From IMG/VR virus record IMGVR_UViG_3300007169_000025, positions 40,018-104,017 of that record: 64,000 bases of DNA; one strand, given 5' to 3'. Position 1 is the stretch's first letter. Each line of letters starts with the position of its first letter. This document shows, piece by piece, positions 29,726-63,998 of this stretch. Below the pieces are notes generated by a model. That model had not been told where the DNA came from and did not search any database. It saw only the letters and a program-made list of their open reading frames with translations. The stretch is from a virus. The position numbers and the translations under genes are program-made.

Positions 29726-30418
29726 ATGCAACTAAAAGAATTCATCGCCGAAAGCTTCAAAAAAGAATACGCATATAGAGTCAAGTTTGCTGCTAACTGC
29801 GGCGCAGAGCAAATGACTCAGCTTGAAAATGCACTACAAAAATATGGTCTTATCAGTGCCGCTGCTTGGAAGCGCAGACCAATTGAAGAAAATCCAATGG
29901 AATTTGTTCGTGCTAAAGGTGTTAAGTTTGTATCAGAAGTGTGTGCAACAGACGTAGTTCTCAAGTATCCTGTTAATGAAAGAATTTTAGAAGTATGGTT
30001 GGCAGTTAATCTTGGATTACCACACGAGCGTGTTCTTGTTTACGGTGTAAAAGAACCCCGTAGATTGGAAAGTGAAAATGCAGAAGAGCGTACTGAGTTT
30101 AACAAAGACAGAGACGCCAAACAAGAAGAAAGTGTTCTAGCTAATGAAGATCAAGAGCACTATGGTATGCAAAATCCAGACCTGTACAAAGACGGTCCTT
30201 TCTTTGGCGAAGAGTTCAACAAAAAGTTTTTAGACGAGCTAGCAAAGATCAAAGCTGAAAAGGGTGCAGATTATTTCCGTAACTATCCAAGTAAGGACGA
30301 GTTAATGGGCGAGGATCTAAAGCCACTTTGGGACACAATGAACAATACCGCCAATATGGGTAAGGGTATTGAAAATAAAGAAGTTGATGTAATCAGCCAA
30401 AGCGCCAGAAGGAACTAA
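29726..30418 (+). CDS. Putative internal head protein with capsid-targeting-like N-terminus
   Basis: Starts MQLKEFIAE (compare T4 internal-protein CTS MKTYQEFIAE); late promoter 29696-29703. Confidence 0.6.
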   Translation: MQLKEFIAESFKKEYAYRVKFAANCGAEQMTQLENALQKYGLISAAAWKRRPIEENPMEFVRAKGVKFVSEVCATDVVLKYPVNERILEVWLAVNLGLPHERVLVYGVKEPRRLESENAEERTEFNKDRDAKQEESVLANEDQEHYGMQNPDLYKDGPFFGEEFNKKFLDELAKIKAEKGADYFRNYPSKDELMGEDLKPLWDTMNNTANMGKGIENKEVDVISQSARRN

Positions 30419-30420
30419 AA

Positions 30421-32355
30421 ATGAAACTGTTTGAGTTTAATGGACCATCACCCTCCGCTGCACAACCTCAGCCTGCACCAACTGCTCCGGCGCAAGACCC
30501 AAAAGCAAAGGCTGGTGCCGCAGCAGTATCTCGTGCTTTAGGCGGAAAAGTTGATGCAAAGTTTGCTCAAGCAATTGATAAAGCTGAACAGGGTAAAGCA
30601 TTAAATCCAGCATTACTAAAATCCATAGCACCATTTGCTGGTGCGCTTGAAAAGATTTTCGCTGATCCTGCTATGAGAACAAAGTTCTTAGCAATGGTAA
30701 AATCAGTACAAGCTGAAGAAAGTATTAATGAAGATCAAGACAGCGTTGATGCAGTTGCAGGTGCAATTACTCGTCGCATTATGAGCCAGCATGTTGACCT
30801 ACTCAGCAAGTATGGTCCAGTTAAAGTTATGGCAGCTATCGACAACGTAGCAGACTTTGCAGGCAGCGATGGCTTAGACGAAATCGGTTCAAGTGATGTA
30901 AGCATCTGGACCAAGCAAGTAATTCAAGATTTAGAAAGTGGTCACTTTGATCACATGGAAAGTGTACAAGAAGCAGAAGGCGATAAGCCTTATATCTGCT
31001 TGTATGTTAAAAAAGATAAAGTATTACGACACGAATGCTATGCACCAACATCATACGAAGCAGCTAAAAAAGCAGCACAGCACTGGGGACTAAAAAGCAC
31101 AGCAGGTGTTAGTGCTCACTTAGCAGATGATTCAGATGATGTAAAAGAAGACGAGCAGTTAGACGAGTTTCTACCGGCACTGGGCGCAGCCGTTGGCCGT
31201 GCAGCCGTCGGCGCAGAAGCAGGCGCAGTCACTCGAGGCATTGCGGGAGGCATTGGCCGCGCAGTAGGAACTATGGCATCCGATGCGCTTGATGATAATG
31301 ATGAAGATCCAACTGATGCTGATAGCAAAGGTGATGAAGTTGACACAGTAACATTAGACGTTCCGTTATTACTTCGTATAATGGAATATGCTCGTGAAGA
31401 TGCACAAGAAGACATGGATCTGCACGGTGTAGCAGAGCGTATGATCGCAATGGCAAAAGATGGCCCATTAAGTATGGACGACTACGATAGTATCGTAGGT
31501 GATGTAGAAGCACTTCCAGCACCAGATAGCATTAAAGAAGAGTATGGTATGTGGAAGGTAGAGTTTCCTGCACAGCACGCCGGTAAAAAAATTGAAGCCG
31601 GTTCAGTTCATGTAAAAGCACAAAACACCGCTCACGCACATAAAGTTGCTGCCAAGAGAGTTGGTGTTGACCACAAGGTATTCAAGACGAATGTAACTAA
31701 GTCCTCAATCCTTCCAGAAGATCAGTTAGATGAGTTATCACCTCAAACACTAGGTAGTTATATTTCAAAGTCTGTTGCAGACGAAAAAGAACGTCGTGCT
31801 AAAGGCATTAGAATGCGCGATGAACTAAGAGCAGCTACTGGCAAGATGTTTACAGCGCCAATGGATCGTAAACTACACAGTCCAACCGCTAGCCGTAAAG
31901 CAGGCCAAAAGCGTGCCATTGATAAACTAACAGGCGCATCAAAAGTACCTGCTAAAGAAAGTTATTATACACCCGGACCAGAAACAATGCCTGGTGCAGT
32001 AGGACCACAAGAAAATACTACTATTAGTTTTAATCAAAGCAAGACTGTGGGTGATGCTACATTAAATATCAGTGCGTCAGCTAAGGACATGGAAGAACTA
32101 CATCGTATTCTAAAGCTAGCAGGTATTGATTATAATGCAGCAGGCGAGAAAGAAGAGCCAAACATGAAAGATGTAGCAGTGGCTCTTGCACCACATATGC
32201 CAGAAGAACCAGCAGAAGAGCCATGTGGTTGCGATAATGCTGATGTTGCTATCCCAATGGTAGCCGGTCCAAAGCCATTAGACTACAAATATACTACTGA
32301 CAAAACAGCATTAATCAATGCTATTAAAGATAAACTAGCAAAGCGTTTATCATAA
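30421..32355 (+). CDS. Putative internal head polyprotein with multiple (L/I/V)xE sites
   Basis: MKLFE start; short modules separated by SINE, SVQE, QLDE, SIKE, QLDE; LDELSPQTLGSY module. Confidence 0.6.
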   Translation: MKLFEFNGPSPSAAQPQPAPTAPAQDPKAKAGAAAVSRALGGKVDAKFAQAIDKAEQGKALNPALLKSIAPFAGALEKIFADPAMRTKFLAMVKSVQAEESINEDQDSVDAVAGAITRRIMSQHVDLLSKYGPVKVMAAIDNVADFAGSDGLDEIGSSDVSIWTKQVIQDLESGHFDHMESVQEAEGDKPYICLYVKKDKVLRHECYAPTSYEAAKKAAQHWGLKSTAGVSAHLADDSDDVKEDEQLDEFLPALGAAVGRAAVGAEAGAVTRGIAGGIGRAVGTMASDALDDNDEDPTDADSKGDEVDTVTLDVPLLLRIMEYAREDAQEDMDLHGVAERMIAMAKDGPLSMDDYDSIVGDVEALPAPDSIKEEYGMWKVEFPAQHAGKKIEAGSVHVKAQNTAHAHKVAAKRVGVDHKVFKTNVTKSSILPEDQLDELSPQTLGSYISKSVADEKERRAKGIRMRDELRAATGKMFTAPMDRKLHSPTASRKAGQKRAIDKLTGASKVPAKESYYTPGPETMPGAVGPQENTTISFNQSKTVGDATLNISASAKDMEELHRILKLAGIDYNAAGEKEEPNMKDVAVALAPHMPEEPAEEPCGCDNADVAIPMVAGPKPLDYKYTTDKTALINAIKDKLAKRLS

Positions 32356-32379
32356 TATCAGTAAAACTGTTTGTTTTAG

Positions 32380-33975
<1,596 letters not shown>

Positions 33976-34002
33976 TAAATAGTATTAGAGGATAATACTA
34001 TT

Positions 34003-35265: not shown

Positions 35266-35290
35266 TCAGAAAGTAGCGTATCTTTTCTTG

Positions 35291-35324
35291 GTCCTGCATA
35301 ACTAACATTATGCAGGACTTTTTT
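35291..35324 (+). terminator. Intrinsic terminator
   Basis: gtcctgcataa-ctaaca-ttatgcaggac + tttttt. Confidence 0.85.
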
Positions 35325-35454
35325 ATGGTTTGGCATAAATAAAATTGTAGAAAGTCATTGACTTTATTACAACATGGCAATATACTAAGGCATAGTAGCA
35401 TATCGATGATATGTTACAAAACAAGGCAACAAGGCAACTTAAGGAGAAAACATT

Positions 35455-36471: not shown

Positions 36472-36484
36472 TTAGGAGCAGTAT

Positions 36485-50388: not shown

Positions 50389-51149
50389 GAAATAAATTAT
50401 ACACAACCGGTTGTAGTTTTACATACGGGCACATTCCAGATTCGTTAGCAAACGACCCGCAGGCTATTCAAAACTATACCAAGGAACCTTGTCCATGGAC
50501 TTGGGCAGGACATATGAAGTCCCATTTTGACGAGTGTGTAAATGAAGCATGGGGTGGGGGCAGTAATCATAGAATGATACGCCGCTGTCATGAGTTTTTT
50601 AGTAATATAAACGATCCAGAGAATTGGGTAGCAGTAATTCAGTTAACTGATCCTTATAGATTTGAATACTTTGATAATGTTATACAGAACCATGTGGGTG
50701 TATTTCATTCAAACGAACATGTACTGTTAGACGATAAAACATCCAGATCAAAGACTATTGATTTAGACGATACGGTTCGTAGGTCCAAAACACCGGTAGC
50801 ATATAGGATGCTGTTTTTAAATTATGATTTAATTGCAATAGAACTTTTTGAAAAATTGATTGCATTAACAAGATTTTTAGAAAGTAAAAATATTGAATAT
50901 TTTGTTACCGCCATGTCAAACAAATGTGCGCCTGAAATAATCGCTAACGATTGTTCAAGCAATCACGCCAAGGATCTATTTAAGTTGTTGGATTTTGATA
51001 AAGTTGTTAGGTTACGGCCATTAAGCCATCAATTAGAAAACGAAGATGACTTTGAATCACCCACTGATCGGCATCCAAGTAAGCACGGGCATGAAAAGAT
51101 TTACAGATACATATATAACCACCTGAAGAGTCGAGGACTAGTAGCATGA
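50385..51149 (+). CDS. SGNH hydrolase-like protein
   Basis: TGCSFTYG, N.A.GG.SN, DRHPS..GH. Confidence 0.7.
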   Translation: MRNKLYTTGCSFTYGHIPDSLANDPQAIQNYTKEPCPWTWAGHMKSHFDECVNEAWGGGSNHRMIRRCHEFFSNINDPENWVAVIQLTDPYRFEYFDNVIQNHVGVFHSNEHVLLDDKTSRSKTIDLDDTVRRSKTPVAYRMLFLNYDLIAIELFEKLIALTRFLESKNIEYFVTAMSNKCAPEIIANDCSSNHAKDLFKLLDFDKVVRLRPLSHQLENEDDFESPTDRHPSKHGHEKIYRYIYNHLKSRGLVA

Positions 51150-52525
51150 GCGAAATAAAAGAATATACAGATGATGTGCAGGAACTGTTTGTAAAGTTTC
51201 TAATCAGTGACGCTGACTTATTTGCTCGTTGTCAAAACATTATTAAACCAGAATTTTTTAATCGTAAGTTTAAAACTACAGTTGAACTTTTAAAGGGACA
51301 CAGCGAGAAATATAACAGTATCCCTACATTAGAGCAGATTAATGCTATTGGTGGCCTAGACTTAGAAGTTATTCAAAACGTAACACCTGACCATCAAAAC
51401 TGGTTTATGGATGAGTTTGAGACTTTCTGTAGACATAAGGCATTAGAAAAAGCTATTATTGAAAGCACAGATTTGCTTGAAAAGCAAAACTATGGTGAAG
51501 TAGAAAACAAGATCAAAGCCGCAGTACAAACTGGGCTTGTAAAAGATTTAGGCTTAGACTATTTTGAAAATCCCAAGGAGCGACTTGAGTGGATCAAGAA
51601 GCAAGCAGGTGCAATAAGCACTGGTTGGAAGGGCATTGATCAGAAACTGTATGGCGGCCTAAATCGAGGTGAAATCACTGTATTCGCTGGCGGATCTGGT
51701 GCAGGTAAGAGTCTGTTCTTACAGAACTTTGGCGTCAACTGGAGTCTTGCAGGGCTAAACGTTGTTTACATAAGTTTAGAACTTAGTGAGCAACTTATTA
51801 GTATGCGATTAGACAGTATGGTCAGTGGACATGCTGCTCGTGAAATCATGCGTAATATCGAAGACGTTGATCTTAAAGTTCGTATGAAAGGCAAAGGCAA
51901 GGGTAAATTTAGAATTAAACAGATGCCCAGCGGTATCAATGCTAATGATATCCGTGCGTTTTTGCGTGAATATGAAATCCAAAGCGGTACCAAAGTGGAT
52001 GCATTGCTAGTTGACTACTTAGATCTAATGATGCCTATTGCTGCAAAGATTAGTGCAGAAAACTTGTTCGTTAAGGACAAGTATGTATCAGAGGAATTGC
52101 GTAATCTAGCAGTAGAGCGTAACTTACTTCTAGTAACAGCATCGCAGCTAAATCGTGCAGCGGTAGAAGAAATTGAGTTTGACCACAGTCATATTGCTGG
52201 CGGCATCAGTAAAATTAACACATCTGATAATGTTATCGGTATCTTTACAAGTAATGCTATGCGTGAGCGTGGACGCTATCAAATTCAGTTTATGAAAACA
52301 AGAAGCAGTAGTGGTGTAGGCAGTAAAGTAGACCTAAAATTTAACCCCGATACACTTCGTATTGAAGATTTAGAAGAAGGCGAAGAGGATGCAAGCACAG
52401 TTACAACTAAGGGGCTTGTTGAGCAGTTAAAGCGTAGTGGTGCTATTAAGGCTGAAGAACCACAAGCACAGGAAACAGTCAATTCCAGCCTTGCGTTGAT
52501 GGACTTCATTAAAGGTAAAAAGTGA
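51146..52525 (+). CDS. Replicative DnaB-like helicase (gp41-like)
   Basis: STGW..ID..LYGG, GGSGAGKS, SLELSE, VDYLD, TASQLNR, KTR. Confidence 0.93.
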   Translation: MSEIKEYTDDVQELFVKFLISDADLFARCQNIIKPEFFNRKFKTTVELLKGHSEKYNSIPTLEQINAIGGLDLEVIQNVTPDHQNWFMDEFETFCRHKALEKAIIESTDLLEKQNYGEVENKIKAAVQTGLVKDLGLDYFENPKERLEWIKKQAGAISTGWKGIDQKLYGGLNRGEITVFAGGSGAGKSLFLQNFGVNWSLAGLNVVYISLELSEQLISMRLDSMVSGHAAREIMRNIEDVDLKVRMKGKGKGKFRIKQMPSGINANDIRAFLREYEIQSGTKVDALLVDYLDLMMPIAAKISAENLFVKDKYVSEELRNLAVERNLLLVTASQLNRAAVEEIEFDHSHIAGGISKINTSDNVIGIFTSNAMRERGRYQIQFMKTRSSSGVGSKVDLKFNPDTLRIEDLEEGEEDASTVTTKGLVEQLKRSGAIKAEEPQAQETVNSSLALMDFIKGKK

Positions 52526-52547
52526 TAAATATACTTAATACTAAAAC

Positions 52548-52832
52548 TTGGAGACCGTTGTGAGACGCAGTCGCAGTATTCTAGAAGAGCTTAATCAAAT
52601 ATCAATTGACAGGGACCGTAACCATGTAGTGGAAAATCGCGGTGAACATGTTATCAGAAGCGCAATTAATCTCTTAGAACAAATTGACAGATACTACGAT
52701 GATGAAACTGCTAAAGATCTAACCAATAGATTAATTAACAGTATTAAAGGTCGCGACAGCACAAAATTCTCCAGGGGCATTAAGAAAGTTATTCGAGAAA
52801 GCCAATCCGGAGAAGACGATGCGACTACATGA
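52548..52832 (+). CDS. Hypothetical protein
   Basis: After GATAAATA 52524-52531; RSILEEL. Confidence 0.7.
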   Translation: METVVRRSRSILEELNQISIDRDRNHVVENRGEHVIRSAINLLEQIDRYYDDETAKDLTNRLINSIKGRDSTKFSRGIKKVIRESQSGEDDATT

Positions 52833-53691
52833 AATTGAAAACATCAACGAAGCACCATTAGATGTATTCAGACGCGGCGCAGCCGCTGCTAAAGCATTTA
52901 TGCAAAAGCCACAGGGCACTGCCCCGGCCCCAACGCAGAGTGATGCACCAAAGGCAGCGCCGGGCCGTTTAAAGGATGGTACTAAAGATTCAGGATATAC
53001 CTACGACGCCAAAACAAGAACATGGACACATCCAACTAAGGGCAAAGCAAGAGGCATGTTAAACCGTCAGCTTATGAATAAGTACGGTGCGAACGACAGT
53101 GGTGAGCCTTTAACTCCATCAGTAGGTCAAAAGATTAGCCAAAAATTGGGAGGGCCGTTTGCACAAGGATTAGATCCTAAAGCCGGCATCGCACAAAAAA
53201 TTGGTGCAAAAATTGGTTCAGCCCTTGGTCGTGGTGTGGCTGCATTAGTTCGTCCTAAAGATACAGATGGCGATGGTCAACCTGACACTGATCAAGATGC
53301 AGCACCTGCCGCAGCACCTGCTGCACAGCAACCGGCACCGTTAGCAAACTTTAAATTTGGTGATACCAGACCAGGTGTAGGCAGTTCAACTGATCAAGCA
53401 CTGGGTAAGATAATAAAACAAATGAGAACATTCAAACCTGCACAAGGTGCTAAACCATTGCCAGGACATATGATCTCTAGTATTGAAGATGATTTATCAA
53501 AAATGCGCGGCAATAAAGATTATGCTATTCGTGCTGGCGACGCAATTTTAAAATTTGCAGGAAAAGGATACGATGTATCAGCATTACAGCAAAAATGGTC
53601 ACAGGAAGCAGCTATTGCTAAAAAGCAAAGAATCATGCAGAGCAAGTTTAATGAAGAATTAAACATTTTAAGAAAATTAGCAGGTATCTAA
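52819..53691 (+). CDS. Putative internal head protein
   Basis: MRLHEIENINE start; low-complexity; ends EELNILRKLAGI. Confidence 0.6.
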   Translation: MRLHEIENINEAPLDVFRRGAAAAKAFMQKPQGTAPAPTQSDAPKAAPGRLKDGTKDSGYTYDAKTRTWTHPTKGKARGMLNRQLMNKYGANDSGEPLTPSVGQKISQKLGGPFAQGLDPKAGIAQKIGAKIGSALGRGVAALVRPKDTDGDGQPDTDQDAAPAAAPAAQQPAPLANFKFGDTRPGVGSSTDQALGKIIKQMRTFKPAQGAKPLPGHMISSIEDDLSKMRGNKDYAIRAGDAILKFAGKGYDVSALQQKWSQEAAIAKKQRIMQSKFNEELNILRKLAGI

Positions 53692-53692
53692 G

Positions 53693-54967
53693 ATGCGTTT
53701 TATTGAAATCTCAAAGCCCCTGATCACAGAGATTATTAGTGAAAGTCTAATCGCTGAAGCTGAAGGTAAGAACACTCACCTTGAGCATCTAGAGGATAAC
53801 ATCTTTAACAAGGGCTTTGCGGGCGCCAAGGAAGCGATTGATTATCTTTACAGCCTTCATGAAATGTTAGAAGGACACAGCAAAGGTGCAGTAAGCATGA
53901 CCACTAAGTGGGACGGTGCACCAGCAGTAGTTGCCGGCCGTGATCCTGCCACTGGTAAGTTCTTTGTAGGCACTAAGGGTGTGTTTGCAAAAAGTCCAAA
54001 ACTAAATTTTACTGTTGCTGACATTAAGGCAAACCATCCTGCAGAAGGATTGCAAGAAAAGTTGATTGTAGCCCTAAAGAATCTTAGTAAGTTAAAATGG
54101 AATACTGTTGTACAAGGTGACATGCTGTTCACACGCAGCGACCTTAAAGAAACTACTATTGACGGTGTAGAATATATTACATTTCAACCAAACACAATCG
54201 TATATGCAGTACCAAAGGACAGCGATCTAGCTAGACAAATTATGAGTGCCGAAATGGGTATTGTATGGCACACTGAATATCCAGGTGGCCCAACACTAGC
54301 AGACACTACTGCAACCTTTGGATTTGACAGTAGTCAGTTAGGCAGTACTCCTAGTGTATGGCATCGCGATGCTCGCATTCAAGATCTTAGCGGTACAGTT
54401 ACATTAACTGCCGCCGAAAGTGCAAATGTAATGGAAGCTATTAGCGAAGCTGATCATTATCTCAAAGGAATTCCTGCTGCTACATTTAGTTGGTTAGAGA
54501 AAGGCAATGAAATAATTGGTCCTGACTTTATACAGCAATTGAAAGCACACGTCAATAACAATATTCGAGCAGGCGCATTTGATGCACCTGAAAAGTTTGC
54601 ACAAGGTTTTGTACAGAAGTATATAGACTTCATGCAAAAGAAAATTGATGGCTACAAGACCGCAGAAAAGCAAGCAGCCGCCACTGAACAACTAACACAA
54701 GGCGTGCAATTTATTAGACAGCATGTAGCTGATATTGTTGCTGTATATGATTTGTATCTTAAGATCATTGAAGCAAAAATTCGACTAATCCGTAAGTTGG
54801 AACAGATCCGTCAGATACCTACATTTAAACAAGAGGGCGATGCATTCGTAGCAACCAACGAAGAAGGCTTTGTTGCTGTTGACCGCATTGGTAATGCGCT
54901 TAAACTTGTTGACCGTTTAGAATTTAGTAGATTAAATTTTGGTAGTGGTAAGCCTGGGAGCAAGTAA
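53693..54967 (+). CDS. Covalent nucleotidyltransferase/RNA-ligase-like protein (DUF6267-like)
   Basis: HLEHLED; motif I TKWDG; QGD; motif IV EEGFVA; motif V LKLVDR. Confidence 0.6.
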   Translation: MRFIEISKPLITEIISESLIAEAEGKNTHLEHLEDNIFNKGFAGAKEAIDYLYSLHEMLEGHSKGAVSMTTKWDGAPAVVAGRDPATGKFFVGTKGVFAKSPKLNFTVADIKANHPAEGLQEKLIVALKNLSKLKWNTVVQGDMLFTRSDLKETTIDGVEYITFQPNTIVYAVPKDSDLARQIMSAEMGIVWHTEYPGGPTLADTTATFGFDSSQLGSTPSVWHRDARIQDLSGTVTLTAAESANVMEAISEADHYLKGIPAATFSWLEKGNEIIGPDFIQQLKAHVNNNIRAGAFDAPEKFAQGFVQKYIDFMQKKIDGYKTAEKQAAATEQLTQGVQFIRQHVADIVAVYDLYLKIIEAKIRLIRKLEQIRQIPTFKQEGDAFVATNEEGFVAVDRIGNALKLVDRLEFSRLNFGSGKPGSK

Positions 54968-55728
54968 TGGAATTTCTGTTACTTGATAAGGTATTAACCG
55001 AGTCTAGACTATACAGATATAGTAGAAATTTTGCTGATCTTGATGGTAAAGATGTTGCTAATCTTTTGTATCTAACTACATTAGTTACATACATGCTTAC
55101 GTTAGACGATGAAACTGAAGACTACGGTTTAACTTATGCTAAGAAAACTGTACAGTACGGTGGTTACTTATTATTTAGGACACACGCCACCGACTTGTAT
55201 CTATTAGCATATGCTGTAGCTAATCCTCAGAATAAGCAAGTCAACTTAAAAAATTCCAGTAGTAACGAATATCTAGGAAGATTAAAATTTCAACCAAAGC
55301 TGCATTGGCGATTCATTATGGATATGTCCAATGGATTGGTTACTAGTAACGATGCATATTCTAATCTCTATAGATTTGAAACACAACTAAAAATTACTGA
55401 TAGTAGATACAAGCGTTGGCGCCGATTGATTTTAGATTGGCGTAATCTAAAGAATATACAGAAGCAATTAGTTGTGGCTCAAGTAACACAAGAGTTTAGA
55501 AAAATTGCTCGAGGATCAGAATTATTAGTACCATTAACTGATATGTTAAAAGATCGAAACTATGTGAATTCAGATCTTGCTGCACCTGCTGCTGATATAT
55601 CCAGCGATGCTGTTGCAGCCGCAGCAACCGCAGCTCTTGCAAACAAACTGTCAACTCAAGTTGGTACACAAAATCTAGGCACAGGTATTGGCGCTTTAGC
55701 TGCATATTGGAATCGACGTCGAGCCTAA
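54967..55728 (+). CDS. Hypothetical protein
   Basis: 253-aa ORF, LTESRLYR near N-term. Confidence 0.7.
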   Translation: MEFLLLDKVLTESRLYRYSRNFADLDGKDVANLLYLTTLVTYMLTLDDETEDYGLTYAKKTVQYGGYLLFRTHATDLYLLAYAVANPQNKQVNLKNSSSNEYLGRLKFQPKLHWRFIMDMSNGLVTSNDAYSNLYRFETQLKITDSRYKRWRRLILDWRNLKNIQKQLVVAQVTQEFRKIARGSELLVPLTDMLKDRNYVNSDLAAPAADISSDAVAAAATAALANKLSTQVGTQNLGTGIGALAAYWNRRRA

Positions 55729-55806: not shown

Positions 55807-56133
55807 ATGGCCCAGACAAGAGTAAATGGTGGTGCAGCATCAGGTCAGTTTCTAACAGGCGCACTAACATGGTTCAAGATTGACGAAGTTAACGGTGCAG
55901 CAAACATTGCAAACTTTGGCTTCACAGCCGGATCAGCAGATCCAGGTGAGAAGGTACTAAATGCTTTCGCAACTGTTGCTAACCCAGTAGTAGTTGAAAG
56001 TGCAAATGCTCGTATTATGTACGTTGCTACAGAAGTAAACGGCATTACAGCATCATCACTACAGACTGCAATCCGCGCAGCTGGTGGTCTAAGCAACCTA
56101 ACAGTTGTAGCTGGTACACTAACTGTAGTCTAA
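55807..56133 (+). CDS. Small late (probably virion) protein, paralogue family
   Basis: Late promoter 55752-55759, ttttaggagaa SD, terminator. Confidence 0.75.
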   Translation: MAQTRVNGGAASGQFLTGALTWFKIDEVNGAANIANFGFTAGSADPGEKVLNAFATVANPVVVESANARIMYVATEVNGITASSLQTAIRAAGGLSNLTVVAGTLTVV

Positions 56134-56151: not shown

Positions 56152-56183
56152 AAAAAGCCCTCGCTAGTCGGGGGCTTTTTTTT
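56152..56183 (+). terminator. Intrinsic terminator
   Basis: aaaaagccctcg-ctagt-cgggggcttttt + ttt. Confidence 0.85.
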
Positions 56184-56248
56184 GATTTAATTTTTTAACC
56201 TATTCAAATACCTAGATGTGATAAATATAAAATATTGGAGATACACAC

Positions 56249-56656
56249 ATGAGTTACACATCACGGTCCGGCGCAATGGGTAGTGCTGAAGTTGTTACAG
56301 GTAATATTGAATTTTACACTTTGTTTACTACATTAGACATTACAAGAACTGGCGATTATAATGATAATAGTCAAAAAGATTTTGAAAGTGTTGTTCAAGT
56401 TATCGGACTACGAGCTATGCCAATTATGATGAACGAGCCAGTTTATCTAAACGGCACTGGTAGTTTAGTACTAGAGAACTTTGGAGCACAGTCATTAACA
56501 GGCGCAGGTTGGATTTTTAAGTTTGCATTTGAACGAGCTGAAGTACACACTATACAGACATTAACCGACGAATTACACGGGATTGTGTTGTTTGATGGTA
56601 CAATTGATACTAAAAACACAATTAATATGGAATTTAGTAAACAGGATCTACTATAA
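56249..56656 (+). CDS. Small late protein, paralogue family
   Basis: Late promoter 56220-56227; FESVVQVIGLRAMP. Confidence 0.7.
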   Translation: MSYTSRSGAMGSAEVVTGNIEFYTLFTTLDITRTGDYNDNSQKDFESVVQVIGLRAMPIMMNEPVYLNGTGSLVLENFGAQSLTGAGWIFKFAFERAEVHTIQTLTDELHGIVLFDGTIDTKNTINMEFSKQDLL

Positions 56657-56901
56657 TGTCTGAAGCAGAAGCCAAGAAAGAGCAAAAACAGATGTACCTA
56701 GAAGGCGCACATTTGGAAGCACATATTATTGCTGACATGTTGCGTATTGAAAACATCACTACAGAATTGCGCGACTTTAAGCAAGGTACCGAAAAGCGTC
56801 TAGATAAGATGGAAAATTGGATCATCGGTATTGTTGCTCTTACAACTACTACTCTACTTGGTGTTGTAACTGCATTACTAATCAAGGCTTTGGGGGCATA
56901 A
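56656..56901 (+). CDS. Coiled-coil + C-terminal TM protein (XhlA-like architecture)
   Basis: RLDKMENWIIGIVAL... Confidence 0.6.
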   Translation: MSEAEAKKEQKQMYLEGAHLEAHIIADMLRIENITTELRDFKQGTEKRLDKMENWIIGIVALTTTTLLGVVTALLIKALGA

Positions 56902-57617
56902 TGAAAATTAGTGAACTAAAGGGAGTAATGGGTGCTATTGAGTTCCACAACGAACTTAATCCTTCTCTTTGGGACAACTATAATTTAAAACCAGAAGTAT
57001 CTGATCGACTTTCAAAGATCGCACAATTTTTTATAGATTTTTTAGATGTAGAAGATTTAAAAGTAACTGACATTACTATTTCCGGCAGCAATGCTGCATA
57101 TACATATACACCTAAGAGTGATATTGATTTACATATTGTGGTAGCAGTTGACGCGGATAAGCAAACTTTTATGCGTAATTTCTTTGACGCTAAGAAAACA
57201 GTTTTTAACAATCAACACGAAATAGTTATTAAAAAACAACCTGTAGAACTATATGTTCAGTTTAGCGATCAACCTCATGCTAGTGCAGGTATCTTTAGTT
57301 TAATGACACACAAGTGGCTGTCAAAACCAAAGAAGGTAGAAGCAAAAATTAACGATAGTGATGTGCAGTCAAAAGCTAAAACTTATGTAAATGCTATCAG
57401 TGATGCTATTCAAAAGCGCGACTTAGATGCAGCTAATAAAATTTGGGATAGGATCAAAGAAGATCGTAAGGAAGGACTCAGTAAGCATGGTGAGTTTGGT
57501 ACAGAAAATTTAGTTTTTAAAACACTTCGTAATGCTGGATTTCTAGAACTACTACAGAAGTTTAAGCAAGTGTATGTTGATCAACAATTGAGCTTGGAAC
57601 ACGCAAATGAAATTTAA
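56901..57617 (+). CDS. Pol-beta-superfamily nucleotidyltransferase
   Basis: SGSNA.Y.Y...SDIDLH and third acid PVELYVQ; ENLVFK.LR; start MKISEL. Confidence 0.8.
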   Translation: MKISELKGVMGAIEFHNELNPSLWDNYNLKPEVSDRLSKIAQFFIDFLDVEDLKVTDITISGSNAAYTYTPKSDIDLHIVVAVDADKQTFMRNFFDAKKTVFNNQHEIVIKKQPVELYVQFSDQPHASAGIFSLMTHKWLSKPKKVEAKINDSDVQSKAKTYVNAISDAIQKRDLDAANKIWDRIKEDRKEGLSKHGEFGTENLVFKTLRNAGFLELLQKFKQVYVDQQLSLEHANEI

Positions 57618-60471
57618 AAATATTAGAACATTGGAATCATTTTTAAAAGAATACGGTATGAGTGCAGGCCCTTCTACTCCGGTGTCTAGTCAGCAAACAG
57701 GCGCGATTACACCAAAGAGCTCGAGCCCAACTTCATCGGGATCTTCACCTAGTCCATCAACAGCTTCATCACCTTCACCTAGTAAAAAATCTACGCAGGC
57801 ACCTAAGCCCGATGATAACGACGATGAGTTGGTAATAATTCCAGCAACTAAAGCACCTATGGGTGCAGTAGTAACTAATCGCGACGGTGAAGATCAGGGT
57901 GTGGTAGTTTCTCCTGTAGGTAAGAAACCAAATGTTGATGCTGTTGTTATGCAAGACCCAAAGGGTGAATACACAATAGCTGATAAAAAAGATAAACTAA
58001 TTATTAGAAAACCAAAAGCTGCTGGCGCAGATGCAGCAGACAAGCAAGATAAAACAACCGTTGGCGGAATAGCTAAAGATATTAAAAACGCTGTAACAGG
58101 CAGTTTTGCAAAAGGCCAATCCGCTGCACAAGGCGTATGGAATTTTAATCCTATGAATAATTCAGTTGAGCCAAATCCAAGATTAAACAAATTAAACGAA
58201 TTTGAAAAACTGTCATTAGAAGAACAGTTAGAAATCCTGTCCACAGTCGATAAAGAAAAACTTGACGAGGCTTGGACTAAGAAATATAAAAAGTCAATTG
58301 ATTGTTCAAATCCTAAGGGATTTAGCCAGAAGGCTCACTGTGCAGGTCGCAAAGCTCGACAAGCAGGACAGGACACTTCAAGTTCTAGTGTATCAGAAGA
58401 TGATATGTTTGGTAGACATTTGCTGAGACGCGGCGCTTACAGAGCAGCATTAAAAGCATTAGCAGAAGTACTGGCAAGAAAAGAAGAACCACGCAAACAC
58501 GGCATTGAATATTATGCTGCCCGCATTGCAAAAAGTTACGAAGGTGTAGACGCTAAAGAGCTAGCAAACATGTATAATGATCTAGTTAATGAATCAGGGT
58601 CATTAGATGAAAATTTACGTCAGTGGTTTAAAGATAAATGGGTACGATTTGGACCCGACGGTAAGATTCGCGGCGATTGCGCCCGCGGTGATGACAGCGA
58701 AGGTAAGCCAAAATGCTTGCCACAAAGTCAAGCACATGCACTAGGCAAGAAAGGCCGCGCTAGTGCTGCTCGCCGTAAGCGTAGAGAGGATCCGAATCCA
58801 GAACGTAAAGGTGCAGCAAAGAACGTTGCTACGAAAAAAGAAAGCGTAGCAGAGTATACAGATATTCCATTCAACACTTGTCCTAGTTGCGGTGGCAGCA
58901 TTGTGCATGAGTCACAGTTGAACGAAAAGCAAGACGCTTGCTACCATAAAGTTAAGGCTCGCTACAAAGTATGGCCCAGTGCATACGCTAGTGGCGCACT
59001 GGTTCAGTGCCGTAAGAAAGGTGCTAAGAACTGGGGTAAGAGCAAAAAGGAAAGTGTAGGCGAAGGTTATGGTCGCTACTGGTGCAGCACTGATAAGAAG
59101 TGGAAGGAACGTCAGGGCCCTAAGCAGAAACGTAAAGTTTCAGAAGGAGTACTAAATGACAGCGTGCCAGATAATAGTGTTGTAACAGTTATCAATAAAT
59201 TATTAAGTAAGCCTTTCCCTGCTAGCGATATTAAAGGTCAGATGGATGCATTCTTTGCTATTCCTGATCCTAGAATGATTAAAGATTTCCGTCAAGTGAG
59301 AGCATCACAGGGAGATAAAGCCTGTTTAAGACCAGTACTTCGTAAGTATGTGAAGGACATGCATCCTTCAATACAGAAACAAATTAATTTACGAGAAAGC
59401 GTATTAAATGAATACGGAAGTCTTGATGCAGCCAAGCAGGAAATTATTCAAGCTGTTAACAGTATTGATACTGCTCCACAGGATGCAGAGATTGCTAAAA
59501 AGAACGCAGATCTTTTGGATAAGATTTATACAATTTTAAATAAAAATAATGTAACAGATCGCATCAGTGCAGTATTACCGGATGTTCTTAAAGGCGAGTA
59601 TGGTAAGGATTGGGTAGTAGATATTGCACAGGCTCTTTCAAATGCACCTATTACATATCAAGAGAAAGCAAAACTTGCCGATAATTTGGCCAACGACAAG
59701 GTAATTGACGCATCAATATTAATCAGCCCAGGTATCTATACTGTGGATCAGTTTACCTTTGGCGACCCGATCAATAGAAAAGTTCTAGATCACATGAAGT
59801 CATTTGGTGTAGGCAAGCTAATGAAAGGCCCACTAGAACATGCACTGGCAATTCTAAGCAAGGAAATTAGTATTGCAGGTAAAGGTGACGTTACTGTTGC
59901 TGGCGAACCAGTAGAAGTTAAAGCAGCTATTGGTGAGAAGGCAGGCAGCGGCGGCGGCCGCTTTGGCGAAACAGGGAGTTTACCCAGCAAGGAACAAATT
60001 TTAAAAATTATCAATAGCTACGAGCAATTGGCCCCACTGGTAGACAATTATCGAAAAACTGGCGGGAAAGGCGGAGGCGCACAAGACTCTGTGAATATCA
60101 GCGTATTTGTATCATTGGTCAATGCTGCAAACTTAGATCCACAGACCAGAGCAGAGCTGGGCAATAAACTATTTGGTACTATCTTTGGTGCTGAAGCAAA
60201 GCCTGTGATTGATGCATTCAATAAGCCAAATGCTGATCCAGATGAAGTACGCAAAGCATATATTGTGAGTAATTTCAACTGGTATAAGAACAGCGATATG
60301 GGCGGCGAATGGAAATATCTAGCTGCTATTAGCTTAGTTGACAACAGTATCGGTGTTGTTGGTACCGGTGAGGATTTATTGCGAATTAGTGCTTATAAGA
60401 AAAACCCAGCTATCATTACTACAAATAAACCGCAGGAAATGTTATATCAGTTTAATCCTAAAGCAATGTAA
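57607..60471 (+). CDS. Large mosaic putative head polyprotein: short Cys/Lys-rich modules and C-terminal PD-(D/E)XK nuclease-like domain
   Basis: Modules each begin after LDE/LNE/VxE; GPLEHAL...KGDVTVAGEPVEVKA. Confidence 0.6.
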   Translation: MKFKNIRTLESFLKEYGMSAGPSTPVSSQQTGAITPKSSSPTSSGSSPSPSTASSPSPSKKSTQAPKPDDNDDELVIIPATKAPMGAVVTNRDGEDQGVVVSPVGKKPNVDAVVMQDPKGEYTIADKKDKLIIRKPKAAGADAADKQDKTTVGGIAKDIKNAVTGSFAKGQSAAQGVWNFNPMNNSVEPNPRLNKLNEFEKLSLEEQLEILSTVDKEKLDEAWTKKYKKSIDCSNPKGFSQKAHCAGRKARQAGQDTSSSSVSEDDMFGRHLLRRGAYRAALKALAEVLARKEEPRKHGIEYYAARIAKSYEGVDAKELANMYNDLVNESGSLDENLRQWFKDKWVRFGPDGKIRGDCARGDDSEGKPKCLPQSQAHALGKKGRASAARRKRREDPNPERKGAAKNVATKKESVAEYTDIPFNTCPSCGGSIVHESQLNEKQDACYHKVKARYKVWPSAYASGALVQCRKKGAKNWGKSKKESVGEGYGRYWCSTDKKWKERQGPKQKRKVSEGVLNDSVPDNSVVTVINKLLSKPFPASDIKGQMDAFFAIPDPRMIKDFRQVRASQGDKACLRPVLRKYVKDMHPSIQKQINLRESVLNEYGSLDAAKQEIIQAVNSIDTAPQDAEIAKKNADLLDKIYTILNKNNVTDRISAVLPDVLKGEYGKDWVVDIAQALSNAPITYQEKAKLADNLANDKVIDASILISPGIYTVDQFTFGDPINRKVLDHMKSFGVGKLMKGPLEHALAILSKEISIAGKGDVTVAGEPVEVKAAIGEKAGSGGGRFGETGSLPSKEQILKIINSYEQLAPLVDNYRKTGGKGGGAQDSVNISVFVSLVNAANLDPQTRAELGNKLFGTIFGAEAKPVIDAFNKPNADPDEVRKAYIVSNFNWYKNSDMGGEWKYLAAISLVDNSIGVVGTGEDLLRISAYKKNPAIITTNKPQEMLYQFNPKAM

Positions 60472-60477
60472 TATGAT

Positions 60478-61383
60478 ATGGCTGAAAAATTCTATATAGA
60501 TGATATTGCTTACCACCCAACATTTAATTGCAACCTAAGTTGTAGAGGCTGTGTTAATTATTCAAATCATTTAGAAACTAGGCAAATCCCTGACGAATCT
60601 AACTGGGAACGCGATCTAGATATATTATTTGAAAGATTTGATGTCAGACATATTGAGATAGCAGGTGGGGAAACATTAATGTTCCCCCACTTACAGCAAG
60701 TATTAGCAAAATTAACTCCTGTAAAATCGTATACAGTCACAACTAACGGCCTATTGCTACATAAAAATATGTGGCTCAAAGATCTTCTTGATTCAGATAG
60801 CAGGCTTAGAATAATTATAAGTGTTCATGGCCATCCTATGCTAGAATCAATTTATATAAAAAATTTATGTGAGAGTGTGGGCAAATTTATAGGTATATCG
60901 CCAGATAAGTTTAAACGAAATCTGAGACAACACTTTGTAACTAATACAGGCCCAAACACTCTTAACTTATTTAAAATTTATAACGATCGTATTATAGTTA
61001 AAAATCAGCATAAGGGTTCATGGCATTATCCACTAATGGATGAAAACGAGTTACCGGTACAGTTTAATAATTCTAAAGAAGATGCATATAGCAAATGTAT
61101 TTGTCCCGGGATGCACATAAAAAATGGTAAGATATATAAATGCCCTATGACAGCAATGTTACCTAGCGTCCTCGATGTAAAGAACATATATGATAAAAAA
61201 TGGCAGTATATCAGGGACTATAAGCCTTATAATCTATTAGAAGAACATAATTCTTCAGATTGGGAACGACTACCACAGCCAGAAGATGTTTGTACTAAAT
61301 GCCCATATGCTGATCATGAATGGGATAGAAACAAAACAGATCTTCATAGTAAAATTGTGTTTGGTGATTCTGTGTTAAAGTGA
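60478..61383 (+). CDS. Radical SAM protein with C-terminal Cys cluster
   Basis: CNLSCRGC, AGGE, TTNG; C..G.IYKC ... C.KC. Confidence 0.88.
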   Translation: MAEKFYIDDIAYHPTFNCNLSCRGCVNYSNHLETRQIPDESNWERDLDILFERFDVRHIEIAGGETLMFPHLQQVLAKLTPVKSYTVTTNGLLLHKNMWLKDLLDSDSRLRIIISVHGHPMLESIYIKNLCESVGKFIGISPDKFKRNLRQHFVTNTGPNTLNLFKIYNDRIIVKNQHKGSWHYPLMDENELPVQFNNSKEDAYSKCICPGMHIKNGKIYKCPMTAMLPSVLDVKNIYDKKWQYIRDYKPYNLLEEHNSSDWERLPQPEDVCTKCPYADHEWDRNKTDLHSKIVFGDSVLK

Positions 61384-61418
61384 TAAATACTAAAAAGCTA
61401 ATTTAACACGAGATTACC

Positions 61419-63998
61419 ATGCGATTTTTAGATCTACAAGAAGGCCCTAACGACCCAGGTATTTTTAAAGCAATATTTCTTGCTGGAGGACCTGGTAGCG
61501 GTAAAAGCTATGTAGCTAGTCAATTAGGTTTAGTAAGCCGCGGCCTTAAGGTAGTTAACAGCGACGATGCCTTTGAATATCTAATGCGTAAGCGTAATTT
61601 AAGTTTTAAAATGCCGCCTGAAGAGCAACCAGAGCGCGATCTTGCTCGTCAGCGAGCCAAAGAACTTACTGGTAAGAAGCAAGATACATATTTAGATGGC
61701 CGTTTAGGGTTGATCATTGATGGTACAGCTAAAGATGTTACTAAAATGGCCAATCTTAAAACAGAGCTTGAAGCTATTGGCTATCAAACCATGATGGTAT
61801 TTGTTAATACTAATTTAAAAACTGCTCTTGCTCGTAATCTACAGCGTGATCGAAAAGTTCCTGCAGAAATAGTTGTAAAATCACACAAGCAGGTTCAGGA
61901 TAATAAGGATCTATTAGCTAGTGTATTTGATCCAAATTTTGTTGAAATTTATAATGATGATAACCCAAACTTTAATACTCCTCTAAAACGAGTTGATAAA
62001 TTCCTTGACGCACCTTTAACTCCTGCTGCACGAGATTGGGTAAGCAAGGCACAGTTACAAAAATCTGTTGCACAAGAGGATACTTCTAATAGTACTAAGG
62101 TCATTTATCGTTTAGACAAAGAAGCGCCAATGGACGACACAGAAGTGCTGGTATTAGGCGGTGCTGGCCGATATACACTTGCTGGTCTTAGAAATAAAGC
62201 CCGTAAGGAAGCAGAAGCATTAGCAAAAGATCTAGAAGTAGAGCATGGCGGTGCTTTCCGTAAGTCAGCATATAATGTTAAACAATTATCCAATACCCTG
62301 AATACAGTAGTAGCGGCCTACGATGAATTAAACAGTATTCGCAAAGGTGGTGGAAGTCGCAGCAAAGGCATACGCAATGAAGATGTAGAACATAAACCAA
62401 AAGTTTATGTAGACATGGACGGTGTGTTAGCCAACTTCTATGCAGGCGTTACCGCAGCCACAGGACATGCTGAACCACGAGAACTTGCGTTACAAGACAT
62501 GGAAGATACAATGGCATCATTTGCTGGTACAGACTTCTTCTATAAACTGCCCAAGTATGAACAAGCAGATCAACTTATTGCAATGGTCAACAAAATGACC
62601 AACGGTGATTGGTATATTTTAAGTTCGCCACTAAAGTATGATCGTGAGGGTAGTGCTAAGTGGAAAGCAGCCTGGGTAAAGAAGTATTTGAATATTCAAC
62701 CTAAAGGTATGCACTTCACAGGAGATAAGGCACAGTTTGCTACACAGCCAGATGGCACACCTAACATCTTAATTGATGATTATCCTAAGTATCTAAGCAG
62801 TTGGACTGAAAAAGGCGGCATTGGTGTAAAGTATAAAGGACATGTGGGTAACATTGAAGATGTTAAAGCAACATTGGACAAATATTTAGACACCGGAGTC
62901 AAAGAAGAAAATAAACCAAGAACAGCAAAAGCATTAATATATCAAACCGATATGTATGGTGCTAAAGGTTACTATGGCCAATGCAAAGAACCTGGTTGCG
63001 ACTATAAAACAAGAACATATGATAGAGCAGCACAAGCACAGAATGCTATCAAGAAACATCACCGAGACCATTTTAAAGATGTAGAGGAAACTATCCGCAA
63101 AGTCAAAGGCGGTTATAGATTAGTAAGCAAGAAGGGTAAAAATTTAGGCACATATCCTAGCAAAGCTGGCGCCGAGAAGCGTGAGCGTCAAGTTCAATAC
63201 TTTAAGCACATGGGCGAACAGGGTCGTTCAACCGCAGTTGAGCCTGACCCAAAAGGTTATCAACATTCACTGTTAACCGCTCCACAAAATACTCTAGTTG
63301 TAGACAAATCTGACGATATGGATTTTTATAAGCTAGGTCAGCACTATACAAGTTTAGCAAATTATGATCCGCATGAGTTGGGCGTTGGCCCCTCGGATAT
63401 GACTATCACATTTGCTTCACCTGAAGAAATGGAACGCATGAAAGCTGTGTTTGATAAGTTAGGTGTAAAGTACAAGGACATTTCCGGTAGTCATGAAGAG
63501 CCAGAAATTCATACAAAAGAAACAAAGAAGCCTGGCAGATTGTTTAGTGCATTGAGTGAGATAGCAGACAGTCCTTATGATTATGTACAAAATGTAAAGA
63601 CACCCGATAAGCGTGCTTATCGCTTTCAGACAGATGCAGGACAGTTGTACAGAGTACAAGTGTTCAATCGTAGAAAAGACGATGCTAACAAGTTAGAAAT
63701 ACATTTTGATTTAACTGACATGAAAACCGGCAAGCCAGAAACTGGCGTAACAGGAACCGGTGATGCAGTTCGTGTGTTTAGTACAGTGGCTAACATTCTA
63801 CAGAAAGAAGTAGCAAGTCAAGACCCCACAGGTGTAATTATCGCTAGTAAAGCAGATGATGAGAGTAGAGTGAAACTTTATAGAACACTAGCACGCCGCG
63901 CTACAAAGCTGATGCCGGACTACGAAATTGCCGGAGAAAACTCTGTTACAGGTGCCGACGGTAATCCATACCTAACCATAGAGTTAGCAAAGAAATGA
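61419..63998 (+). CDS. Multidomain putative head polyprotein: P-loop kinase + HAD 5'(3')-nucleotidase + Zn-finger + further modules
   Basis: FLAGGPGSGKS, VNSDD, IIDGT; VYVDMDGVL...LIDD; CKEPGC...H..H; late promoter 61382-61389; stop TGA 63996-63998 overlaps next ATG. Confidence 0.8.
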   Translation: MRFLDLQEGPNDPGIFKAIFLAGGPGSGKSYVASQLGLVSRGLKVVNSDDAFEYLMRKRNLSFKMPPEEQPERDLARQRAKELTGKKQDTYLDGRLGLIIDGTAKDVTKMANLKTELEAIGYQTMMVFVNTNLKTALARNLQRDRKVPAEIVVKSHKQVQDNKDLLASVFDPNFVEIYNDDNPNFNTPLKRVDKFLDAPLTPAARDWVSKAQLQKSVAQEDTSNSTKVIYRLDKEAPMDDTEVLVLGGAGRYTLAGLRNKARKEAEALAKDLEVEHGGAFRKSAYNVKQLSNTLNTVVAAYDELNSIRKGGGSRSKGIRNEDVEHKPKVYVDMDGVLANFYAGVTAATGHAEPRELALQDMEDTMASFAGTDFFYKLPKYEQADQLIAMVNKMTNGDWYILSSPLKYDREGSAKWKAAWVKKYLNIQPKGMHFTGDKAQFATQPDGTPNILIDDYPKYLSSWTEKGGIGVKYKGHVGNIEDVKATLDKYLDTGVKEENKPRTAKALIYQTDMYGAKGYYGQCKEPGCDYKTRTYDRAAQAQNAIKKHHRDHFKDVEETIRKVKGGYRLVSKKGKNLGTYPSKAGAEKRERQVQYFKHMGEQGRSTAVEPDPKGYQHSLLTAPQNTLVVDKSDDMDFYKLGQHYTSLANYDPHELGVGPSDMTITFASPEEMERMKAVFDKLGVKYKDISGSHEEPEIHTKETKKPGRLFSALSEIADSPYDYVQNVKTPDKRAYRFQTDAGQLYRVQVFNRRKDDANKLEIHFDLTDMKTGKPETGVTGTGDAVRVFSTVANILQKEVASQDPTGVIIASKADDESRVKLYRTLARRATKLMPDYEIAGENSVTGADGNPYLTIELAKK

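Follow-up and report, generated by a model that had tools for sequence, protein, structure and literature searches.

Are the long late proteins encoded by a 64,000-nucleotide stretch of viral DNA single enzymes, or chains of unrelated modules that are loaded into the phage head behind one leader and cut apart there? The stretch (hereafter the window) consists of bases 40018-104017 of the 104-kb IMG/VR viral contig IMGVR_UViG_3300007169_000025. A preliminary description of its positions 29726-63998, made from the sequence alone, had favored the second answer: leaders like the capsid-targeting sequence (CTS) of T4 internal proteins, cleavage by a gp21-type prohead protease after the Glu of (L/I/V)xE, and an injected payload that evolves by cassette shuffling. 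The seven N-termini on which it relied, beginning at 29726, 30421, 52819, 53693, 56901, 57607 and 61419, are all present at those positions. After computational analysis we regard head-targeted cargo proteins, some of them protease-jointed polyproteins, as the probable identity of these gene products.

The DNA is from an uncultured, T4-related, T4-core jumbo phage. Because the 104-kb contig is estimated to be 28% complete, a genome of approximately 350 kb is implied. Sequence identity of the large terminase is 57% to its counterpart in Pseudomonas jumbo phage PA5oct and ~53% to the one in Agrobacterium phage Atu_ph07. A megablast search with both gene blocks as queries gave zero matches in 50,697 phage records, and relatives exist at the protein level only.

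Placement of (L/I/V)xE motifs in the long proteins

The 859-amino acid (aa) protein (61419..63998, + strand) was divided into parts using Pfam and PHROG matches, an AlphaFold model and homolog breakpoints. It comprises a leader (residues 1-8, DLQE/G, the slash marking the predicted cut), a kinase, insert and HAD region resembling T4 Pnkp (9-496), a Zn module (497-557), unassigned domains (558-714), and DUF6934 (715-859). The (L/I/V)xE motif has its P1 Glu at 8, 496, 557 and 714 and nowhere else, i.e., four sites against 9.3 expected by composition (P=0.03). In the AlphaFold model (35-sequence alignment, mean predicted local distance difference test score (pLDDT) 60), linkers with pLDDT<50 span residues 1-11, 492-557, and 692-717; 4/4 sites lie in them, each a few residues from a folded edge, and the folded parts contain 0 sites versus 4.8 expected (P=0.004). 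Breakpoints among homologs recur at 496 and 555-557, and the 61-aa Zn module behaves as a cassette, present or absent exactly between the two VxE sites. L6 and E8 are invariant in 34 homologs, as is E557, while P2 of the leader varies (LQE, LHE, LIE, LNE or LTE across 34/34 homologs).

The kinase P-loop GPGSGKS and the HAD motif DMDGV are intact. Pfam assigns the two parts to Zeta_toxin/AAA_33 (kinase) and NT5C (HAD), and the top Foldseek matches are T4 Pnkp (1ltq/2ia5, E ~1e-6 over ~480 columns) and the Pnkp1/Rnl/Hen1 complex. The kinase-then-HAD order in one chain fits the definition of a T4 Pnkp-like protein by sequence and fold. Since the Foldseek match to T4 Pnkp extends over ~480 columns, residues 9-496 probably stay together as one kinase-phosphatase unit. 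The preliminary description had instead placed a cut between kinase and HAD at IRNE/D, a candidate that we rejected: Arg at P3 breaks the motif, and the fold match favors one unit. The linkers that it quoted are present in the sequence, with the provisos that IRNE/D is not an (L/I/V)xE site and that GVKEE/ should read VKE/E. Residues 9-496 share with T4 Pnkp the fold and the order of P-loop kinase and HAD, but no sequence identity is detectable beyond the motifs, an insert of ~100 aa (213-324) is disordered or helical, the HAD part more closely resembles 5'(3')-deoxyribonucleotidases (NT5C), and the two parts are separate genes in relatives. For the DUF6934 module (window 63561-63995), Foldseek lists the GNAT-fold acetyltransferase SpeG (3tth) over ~135 columns, and the DUF6934 fold may be GNAT-like.

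The 954-aa protein (57607..60471, + strand) begins with a leader (1-15, FLKE/YG) and a low-complexity region, followed by a β-barrel (73-136), module A (222-264), a helical module (265-335), a basic Cys module B (336-416), a Zn ribbon (417-440), module C (441-486), module D (487-513), a domain at 514-602, and a C-terminal domain (603-954). Modules A to D are mini-proteins of extreme basicity, rich in Lys and Arg. P1 residues of (L/I/V)xE are at 15, 198, 206, 221, 264, 287, 329, 335, 416, 435, 440, 486, 513, 597, 602 and 777, giving 16 sites versus 9.6 expected by composition (P=0.02). Linkers hold 10 of the 16 versus 2.75 expected from linker composition, a number reached in 0/3000 shuffles. 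In both proteins, then, site placement departs from random. At the junction sites 15, 206, 221, 335, 416, 440, 597 and 602, the motif is conserved, with P2 free, in 18-20 homologs out of 18-20 aligned per site; junction-site conservation is 18-20 of ~20 homologs, or 26-34 of 30-34. Site 602, which with 597 precedes the C-terminal domain, occurs as IKE, INE, LKE, LME, LNE, MME, VME or VNE. Site 287, inside a confident helix, is kept in 0/15 homologs. Total site counts are not significant for proteins other than these two, and it is site placement, not site number, that carries the signal.

The public 937-aa gene call for this protein (P0001) starts at M18. Because ~20 homologs start upstream, with MKF(E/K/T)(N/D)(I/V)(R/K)T...(L/I)xE/YG, and have K, L or R at the position of M18, we consider the long start to be right and the public call to be clipped. 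The (I/L)xE/YG end of the leader is kept in 19/19 homologs. Foldseek with the 954-aa model returned nothing at E<=0.001; the β-barrel (window 57823-58014) showed a weak likeness to the N-terminal, SH3/KOW-like barrels of ribosomal L2 and eIF5A (E ~0.2, high probability).

The module region of the 954-aa protein retrieves more than 4500 metagenomic proteins of 524-1670 aa, in which the small basic Cys-containing modules turn up in new combinations with domains such as ParB, deaminase, GNAT and PARP. Among 120 non-redundant contexts, [LIVM]xE precedes the module in 115 (A, 46/48; B, 43/44; C, 26/28), 0-1 residue from its first conserved residue. P1 is Glu in 118/120; P2 and P1' vary, and residues farther upstream are not conserved. 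The 1566-aa relative P0084 repeats the linker (Q)GVAE/G approximately nine times. Module order in relatives, together with the swapping of the Zn module between VxE sites in the 859-aa protein, thus bears out the proposed cassette shuffling, and sequence comparison supports modules bounded by the (L/I/V)xE motif as the units that are exchanged.

The third long protein, of 644 aa and rich in Ala, Pro and acidic residues (30421..32355, + strand; leader MKLFE/), has 11 (L/I/V)xE sites, repeated QLDE/ linkers among them, and no Pfam or PHROG family match. Similarity to the syntenic PA5oct structural protein EST35_0203 was not significant, and homology to it was rejected. Where the preliminary description counted three large polyproteins, the 859- and 954-aa proteins are upheld and the 644-aa protein, the weakest of the three, is so called less certainly.

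Leaders, the prohead protease and late-promoter-like octamers

Short N-terminal leaders that end in hydrophobic-x-Glu, 5-22 aa long and varied in sequence, are present on otherwise unrelated proteins. A strict pattern, ^M[KRQN][LIFVY].[DE], which was defined post hoc, matches 7/100 genes called on the 104-kb contig versus 0.5 (internal Met control) to 1.1 (independent positions) expected (P ~1e-6 to 1e-4). The start of the 954-aa protein, MKFKN...FLKE/YG, fails this pattern and is recognized from its homologs, bringing the leader-bearing late proteins to at least eight. In 99 non-redundant N-termini of the retrieved families, [LIVM]xE occurs within residues 2-20 in 76, compared to 19 in each of two control segments (Fisher P=2e-16). 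For the complete 352-kb relative G003, the strict pattern was replaced by a motif-free test of N-terminal similarity: 32 non-paralogous pairs share at least 5/9 N-terminal residues versus 3-4 in control segments. The largest recurring group, apart from signal peptides and Rossmann starts, is a leader family MRA.(E/D)F(I/V/L).E/ that sits on a contiguous gene array with unrelated cargo, including an amidoligase and a GH19 hydrolase.

Orthologs bear differing leaders or none, and each leader stops at (L/I/V)xE directly before the conserved core. The 424-aa DUF6267 protein (53693..54967, + strand) has a 22-aa leader, MRFIEISKPLITE/IISE/SLIAE/ (53693-53758), and its Pfam match begins at residue 27. 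Its N-terminus reads MRFIEISKPLITEIISESLIAE/AEGKNTHLEHLED in the window, (M)INFSKYITE/DKGGKNLHLEHIED in phage Melnitz, and MYNDLLVE/DKNTHLEHLED in HTVC008M, with leaders of 8 to 22 aa all ending in an LxE/-type site, and MAKNTHLEHLED, without a leader, in cyanophage S-CAM9. The kinase module is preceded by xE/G in every context compared: DLQE/GPNDPGIFKA in the window, ELQE/GVYDPNIFKA in Melnitz, ILKE/GLYDPGIFKA in HTVC008M, MLKE/GVYDP... in metagenomic relatives, and, as an internal module, EVTE/GVNDKHIFKA in Atu_ph07 gp53. Because DUF6267 is leaderless in S-CAM9, and the kinase module is N-terminal in the window and internal in gp53, we read the leader as an add-on, and the comparison supports leaders being separable propeptides. 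Gene callers and annotators often clip such leaders; two cases are the 954-aa protein (window 57607-57657) and Atu_ph07 gp113 (L009:3489-3578).

A gp21-type prohead protease (Peptidase_S77, PF03420, E=1e-26; contig 28738-29361) is encoded on the contig upstream of the window. The T4 gene order is kept there: portal (Portal_T4 match), a 65-aa open reading frame (ORF), an acidic coiled coil, protease, a 369-aa protein in the scaffold position, and a gp23-type major capsid protein (MCP; Gp23 match). The 65-aa ORF (MRLNEF...), between portal and protease in the position of T4 gp67, shows the strict leader pattern. The MCP carries (L/I/V)xE four times in its first 43 residues (LFE6, LLE18, VLE32 and LSE43/AATAG), with two further sites only in the remaining 336 residues; the last of the four, YLSE/AATAG, corresponds in position to the T4 gp23 site and directly precedes a stretch that aligns with the mature N-terminus of T4 gp23. 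The scaffold-position protein is saturated with L.E sites, and a core/scaffold protein is expected to be degraded. The protease itself has sites near its N- and C-terminal ends. The canonical protease substrates of this phage therefore carry the same (L/I/V)xE motif and serve as an internal control, and the protease context of the original proposal holds.

A second motif, (I/L)(R/L)KLAG(I/L), was found just three times when the 104-kb contig was translated in six frames. Two copies are C-terminal, one ending the scaffold-position protein (...IRKLAGLSK; contig 30457-30486, upstream of the window) and one ending the protein encoded at 52819 (...ILRKLAGI; window 53665-53691); the third is internal to the 644-aa protein (...ILKLAGI; window 32107-32130). 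The scaffold-position protein of G003 ends in ...IKRLAGL. This motif may be a shell- or core-anchoring element.

Every candidate leader gene sits downstream of the octamer GATAAATA, to which a promoter role can be ascribed tentatively. Copies on the + strand lie at 29696..29703 (22 nucleotides (nt) before the 29726 gene), 52524..52531 (before an operon at 52548-55728), 56220..56227 (before an operon at 56249-61383), and 61382..61389 (before the 859-aa gene), with further copies at window 33974, 55752 and elsewhere; the octamer also precedes the portal gene, the 1352-aa tail gene, and the gene at 34003. ATAAATA on the + strand lies 20-120 nt upstream of a gene start in ~15/20 occurrences, mostly before structural genes. 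The canonical T4 late promoter TATAAATA occurs once on the contig and was rejected as the late promoter of this phage in favor of the local variant GATAAATA. It is plausible from these upstream sequences that the candidate genes are late genes.

Homologs in virions and neighboring genes

A virion proteome has been published for Atu_ph07 (PMC6102473, Attai et al. 2018), which also encodes a gp21 homolog (gp204); we matched the Atu_ph07 accessions to gp numbers by molecular weight. Published mass spectrometry (MS) of Atu_ph07 and/or PA5oct includes homologs of the 859-aa protein and of the proteins encoded at 29726 and 56249. The homolog of the 859-aa protein, gp53 (778 aa, 87.07 kDa), has the leader MKWNDLNE/, an N-terminal domain, the kinase after ...VTE/, and two DUF6934-like modules, after NLTE/ and NLNE/; its predicted sites are E8, E239, E252, E458, E582 and E715. 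It was found in virions with 31 unique peptides and 45.5% coverage (PMC6102473 Table S5) and peaks in gel band 9 with gp127, gp133, gp183 and gp701, proteins of 20.8-22.0 kDa, whereas the 87.3-kDa gp197 peaks in band 1 (PMC6102473). The site-rich gp44 (86 kDa, band 10) and gp108 (98 kDa, band 13) also run far below their size. We observed that gp108 has three repeated ~75-aa modules, each after (V/I)FE/, and that it peaks in the lowest band of the gel. The adjacent paralogs gp54-59, whose N-termini we read for leaders, start with M(K/R)W(E/Q)QL(T/N)E/, and these and the adjoining gp60-65 are virion proteins (PMC6102473). The suggestion that the ~30-kDa Atu_ph07 array encodes Alt-like ADP-ribosyltransferases found no Pfam support and was dropped. 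Among module-carrying records, an S77 protease is encoded in 3/3 that are at least 90% complete and in one that is 55% complete; those without S77 are all fragments of 31-37% completeness.

The 230-aa internal-protein-like gene (29726..30418, + strand) has the leader MQLKEFIAE/ at 29726-29752, which shares ...EFIAE with the T4 CTS. The protein matches phrog_14802, 'virion structural protein', and its homologs PA5oct EST35_0202 (syntenic, just upstream of TerL) and Atu_ph07 gp113 are MS-confirmed virion proteins. The latter has 61.7% MS coverage, and its ORF extends past the annotated start to an upstream MKTLQDYLTE/SKK. The 135-aa protein at 56249..56656 (+ strand), without a leader, is homologous to Atu_ph07 virion protein gp50 (BLASTP E=1e-12; 7 peptides, 57% coverage, Table S5, PMC6102473). 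A leaderless 108-aa small late protein (window 55807-56133) has a similar Gly/Ala-rich start.

The remaining leader-bearing genes are a 290-aa protein (52819..53691, + strand; leader MRLHE/IENINE/, C-terminus ...ILRKLAGI) and a 238-aa Pol-beta-type nucleotidyltransferase (56901..57617, + strand; leader MKISE/, Pfam NTP_transf_2), whose phrog_36119 match starts at residue 12. The DUF6267 protein carries KWDG, a KxDG-type motif, and gave no ligase match in Pfam at E<=5, in a PDB sequence search or in Atlas; identity as a ligase is unsupported by these searches and was kept as a lead from KWDG. A radical-SAM protein (PF04055, CxxxCxxC at residues 18-25; window 60478-61383) is encoded in the late operon, between the genes of the two polyproteins, and has no leader. 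In pelagiphages, a cluster directly after the primase-helicase (HTVC008M, 103.7-111.7 kb; Melnitz, 12.2-16.9 kb) is syntenic with window 51146-54967. It encodes a 350-aa protein, DUF6267, a basic 130-170-aa protein, the kinase, a cytidylyltransferase-like protein and HAD, and most members carry their own short LxE-ended leader.

Candidate mechanism, alternatives and comparison with known systems

In the mechanism that we favor, the cargo genes would be transcribed late, and each product would bear a short CTS-type propeptide (Met, a basic or polar residue, a hydrophobic residue, any residue, an acidic residue, a hydrophobic residue, and further on (L/I/V)xE) that docks it onto the scaffolding core during prohead assembly. 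The gp21-type S77 protease would then cut after the Glu. In the 954- and 859-aa proteins, and less certainly in the 644-aa protein, the site recurs in disordered inter-module linkers, and one leader would thus load a whole chain that head maturation separates into a T4 Pnkp-like kinase-phosphatase, Zn-ribbon and very basic Cys mini-proteins, DUF6934 and the large C-terminal domain. These pieces would remain in the DNA-filled head and presumably exit with the DNA, and evolution would exchange modules along with the flanking site. What the data show is the motifs with their placement and conservation, the protease gene, and a homolog that occurs in virions and runs anomalously low in gels; we infer targeting, cleavage, retention, injection and function in this phage. 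Injection, by analogy with T4, and an anti-defense or takeover role are purely a matter of inference. The Pnkp-like enzyme, the Pol-beta nucleotidyltransferase and DUF6267 suggest nucleic-acid end repair, and the very basic modules may bind DNA, as T4 internal proteins do.

Several points weigh against this mechanism. The AlphaFold models have low confidence (mean pLDDT ~60) and shallow alignments, and 'linker' in them partly means 'not modeled'. The (L/I/V)xE before modules A, B and C could be integral to small domains instead of a cut site, and total site counts are close to compositional expectation. The strict leader pattern is weakly enriched in G003 (11 versus 6.7 expected), and the PA5oct homolog of the 29726 protein begins with MKSFRDYYDA, without LxE. 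The pelagiphage cluster follows replication genes, and a cytoplasmic role is possible there. Homologous ejection proteins of the SPN3US type are sometimes left uncut (PMC5694885). The Atu_ph07 particles were purified with polyethylene glycol only, many proteins smear over many bands, and neither peptides per band nor semi-tryptic peptides are given, which makes the band data coarse and leaves cleavage at the predicted sites a prediction.

The alternative that deserves most attention, which we nevertheless think unlikely, is that the proteins are packaged by genuine leaders and cut at only the N-terminal site and perhaps a few others, the chains staying largely intact as 'polyvalent' proteins and hydrophobic-x-Glu acting as a structural N-cap. 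The constant distance of 0-1 residue between the motif and the first conserved module residue is what a domain-intrinsic feature would give, and Atu_ph07 gp54 (56 kDa) and gp55-65 (~30 kDa) run near full size; gp53, gp44 and gp108, however, run far below it. An N-cap also sits poorly with P2 and P1' varying freely while P3 and P1 are fixed, with the sharing of the motif by unrelated junctions (the GVAE/G linkers of P0084; sites 597 and 602), and with its depletion from the folded domains of the 859-aa protein. A quite improbable explanation is that the chains are assembly or DNA-condensation material like T4 gp22, gp67, gp68 and internal peptides, forming the core, being cut up and then mostly expelled or serving packaged DNA as counter-ions, the enzymes being incidental or acting in the head. 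The extreme basicity of modules A to D, the ...RKLAG(I/L) that the 52819 and 30421 proteins share with the scaffold C-terminus, and the low-complexity, acidic, scaffold-like 644-aa protein would suit such material, but not the intact catalytic signatures (GPGSGKS, DMDGV), the enzymatic diversity of cargo in relatives (ParB, deaminase, GNAT, PARP, amidoligase, GH19), or the retention of homologs in mature virions at high coverage.

We attach least probability, very little, to the proteins being ordinary cytoplasmic late enzymes of nucleic-acid end repair and nucleotide metabolism, with the N-terminal pattern reflecting a translation-initiation or helix preference and Glu-rich linkers yielding the motif through their composition. 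T4 Pnkp and ligases are cytoplasmic, the pelagiphage cluster follows UvsX and the primase-helicase, and overall motif counts are near expectation; against these stand the MS of virion homologs, the composition-controlled enrichment in linkers, a leader conserved across unrelated cargo, and late-promoter-like octamers upstream.

A wider reading, which we offer tentatively and hold to be doubtful, is that aquatic and soil T4-related jumbo phages share a general plug-in grammar in which any module that follows a capsid-targeting leader and is flanked by the prohead-protease site is loaded, released and injected. The phage studied here would then deliver a pre-packaged end-repair kit (the Pnkp-like kinase-phosphatase, the Pol-beta nucleotidyltransferase and the KxDG-bearing DUF6267) plus DNA-coating mini-proteins, acting ahead of all phage gene expression, for example by reversing damage from host anticodon nucleases or at DNA ends. 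If this were true, the thousands of variants (more than 4500 relatives) would form a large unexplored repertoire of injected counter-defense. Were cleavage of the chains confirmed, the T4 CTS/gp21 paradigm would extend from single small internal proteins to shuffled enzyme chains, a mechanistic link to polyvalent proteins would be provided, and the many giant-phage virion proteins that run far below predicted size would be accounted for. A leader plus conserved (L/I/V)xE joints would furthermore be a sequence rule to annotate head cargo and predict mature products in uncultured T4-like and jumbo phages, one that points to a very large candidate pool of first-minute effectors (the same >4500 relatives from one module set), and the arrangement would suggest to engineers a natural way to load multiple proteins into a capsid by means of a single tag.

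In T4, the CTS consists of the first 10 residues of IPIII, of which residues 8 and 10 are required for processing, and Alt is cut at ITE-6 and LTE-619 (PMC9026906, PMC5694885); gp22, gp67 and gp68 are cut to fragments (PMC9026906, PMC5694885, PMC3012670). From T4 data, Asp in place of the P1 Glu is predicted to prevent cutting while leaving targeting intact. The window proteins resemble IPI, IPII, IPIII and Alt in having a short N-terminal leader on unrelated cargo, with hydrophobic P3 and Glu P1, and the protease family (Peptidase S77) and head gene order are the same. They resemble Alt, an enzyme that in T4 is cut at both ends and injected. The differences are that T4 has one leader per single-unit protein, whereas here a leader is followed by a chain of 4-10 modules with conserved internal sites; that leaders in the window are more varied (5-22 aa) than the ~10-aa T4 CTS; and that a Pnkp-like enzyme, a nucleotidyltransferase and DUF6267 are among the cargo, while T4 Pnkp is a cytoplasmic early protein.

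phiKZ, 201phi2-1 and SPN3US are giant phages with dozens of head proteins, many of which are cut after Glu at a three-residue motif, in some cases more than once; targeting is ascribed to N-terminal propeptides, and ejection proteins enter the cell (PMC5694885). The motif there is (S/A/G)-x-E or A-x-E and the protease S80, in contrast to P3 L/I/V/M and an S77 protease here, and most substrates consist of a propeptide and a single mature part, in contrast to shuffled chains of several enzymes. Atu_ph07 gp53 and gp54-65 are true homologs; gp53 shares the kinase module and has a pair of DUF6934-like modules, all preceded by (V/L)(T/N)E/, although module order has changed and an N-terminal domain has been added. 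Its description lists gp53 and gp54-65 as hypothetical virion proteins and leaves leaders, cleavage motifs and the odd band position unremarked (PMC6102473). The text of the cyanophage virion proteomics study (Sullivan 2010) does not permit mapping to the genes considered here, and it was set aside.

Polyvalent proteins (Iyer, Burroughs, Anand, de Souza and Aravind 2017) contain many disparate domains, are predicted to be packaged and injected, and are shuffled (PMC5512222). Processing by in-chain zincin-like metallopeptidases, assemblin-like or LonC peptidases and anchoring via MuF-type domains were proposed for them; T4-type packaged proteins were left outside the class, and cyanophages are unmentioned (PMC5512222). 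Kinase, HAD, Zn module and DUF6934 in one chain, and basic modules, Zn ribbon and C-terminal domain in another, correspond to the definition of 2-15 disparate domains. No in-chain peptidase or MuF domain was matched by Pfam or PHROG in any of the seven proteins; targeting here would be by a T4-type leader, and the joints match a separate prohead protease, which sets the window proteins apart from that class. A full-text literature search combining polyprotein with prohead protease, and capsid targeting with cyanophage, did not find the arrangement described. The novelty implied by the preliminary description must nonetheless be narrowed: T4 CTS, internal proteins and Alt, phiKZ-type processing and polyvalent proteins are established concepts on which the arrangement is a variation, and its new element is the stringing of many modules behind one T4-type leader.

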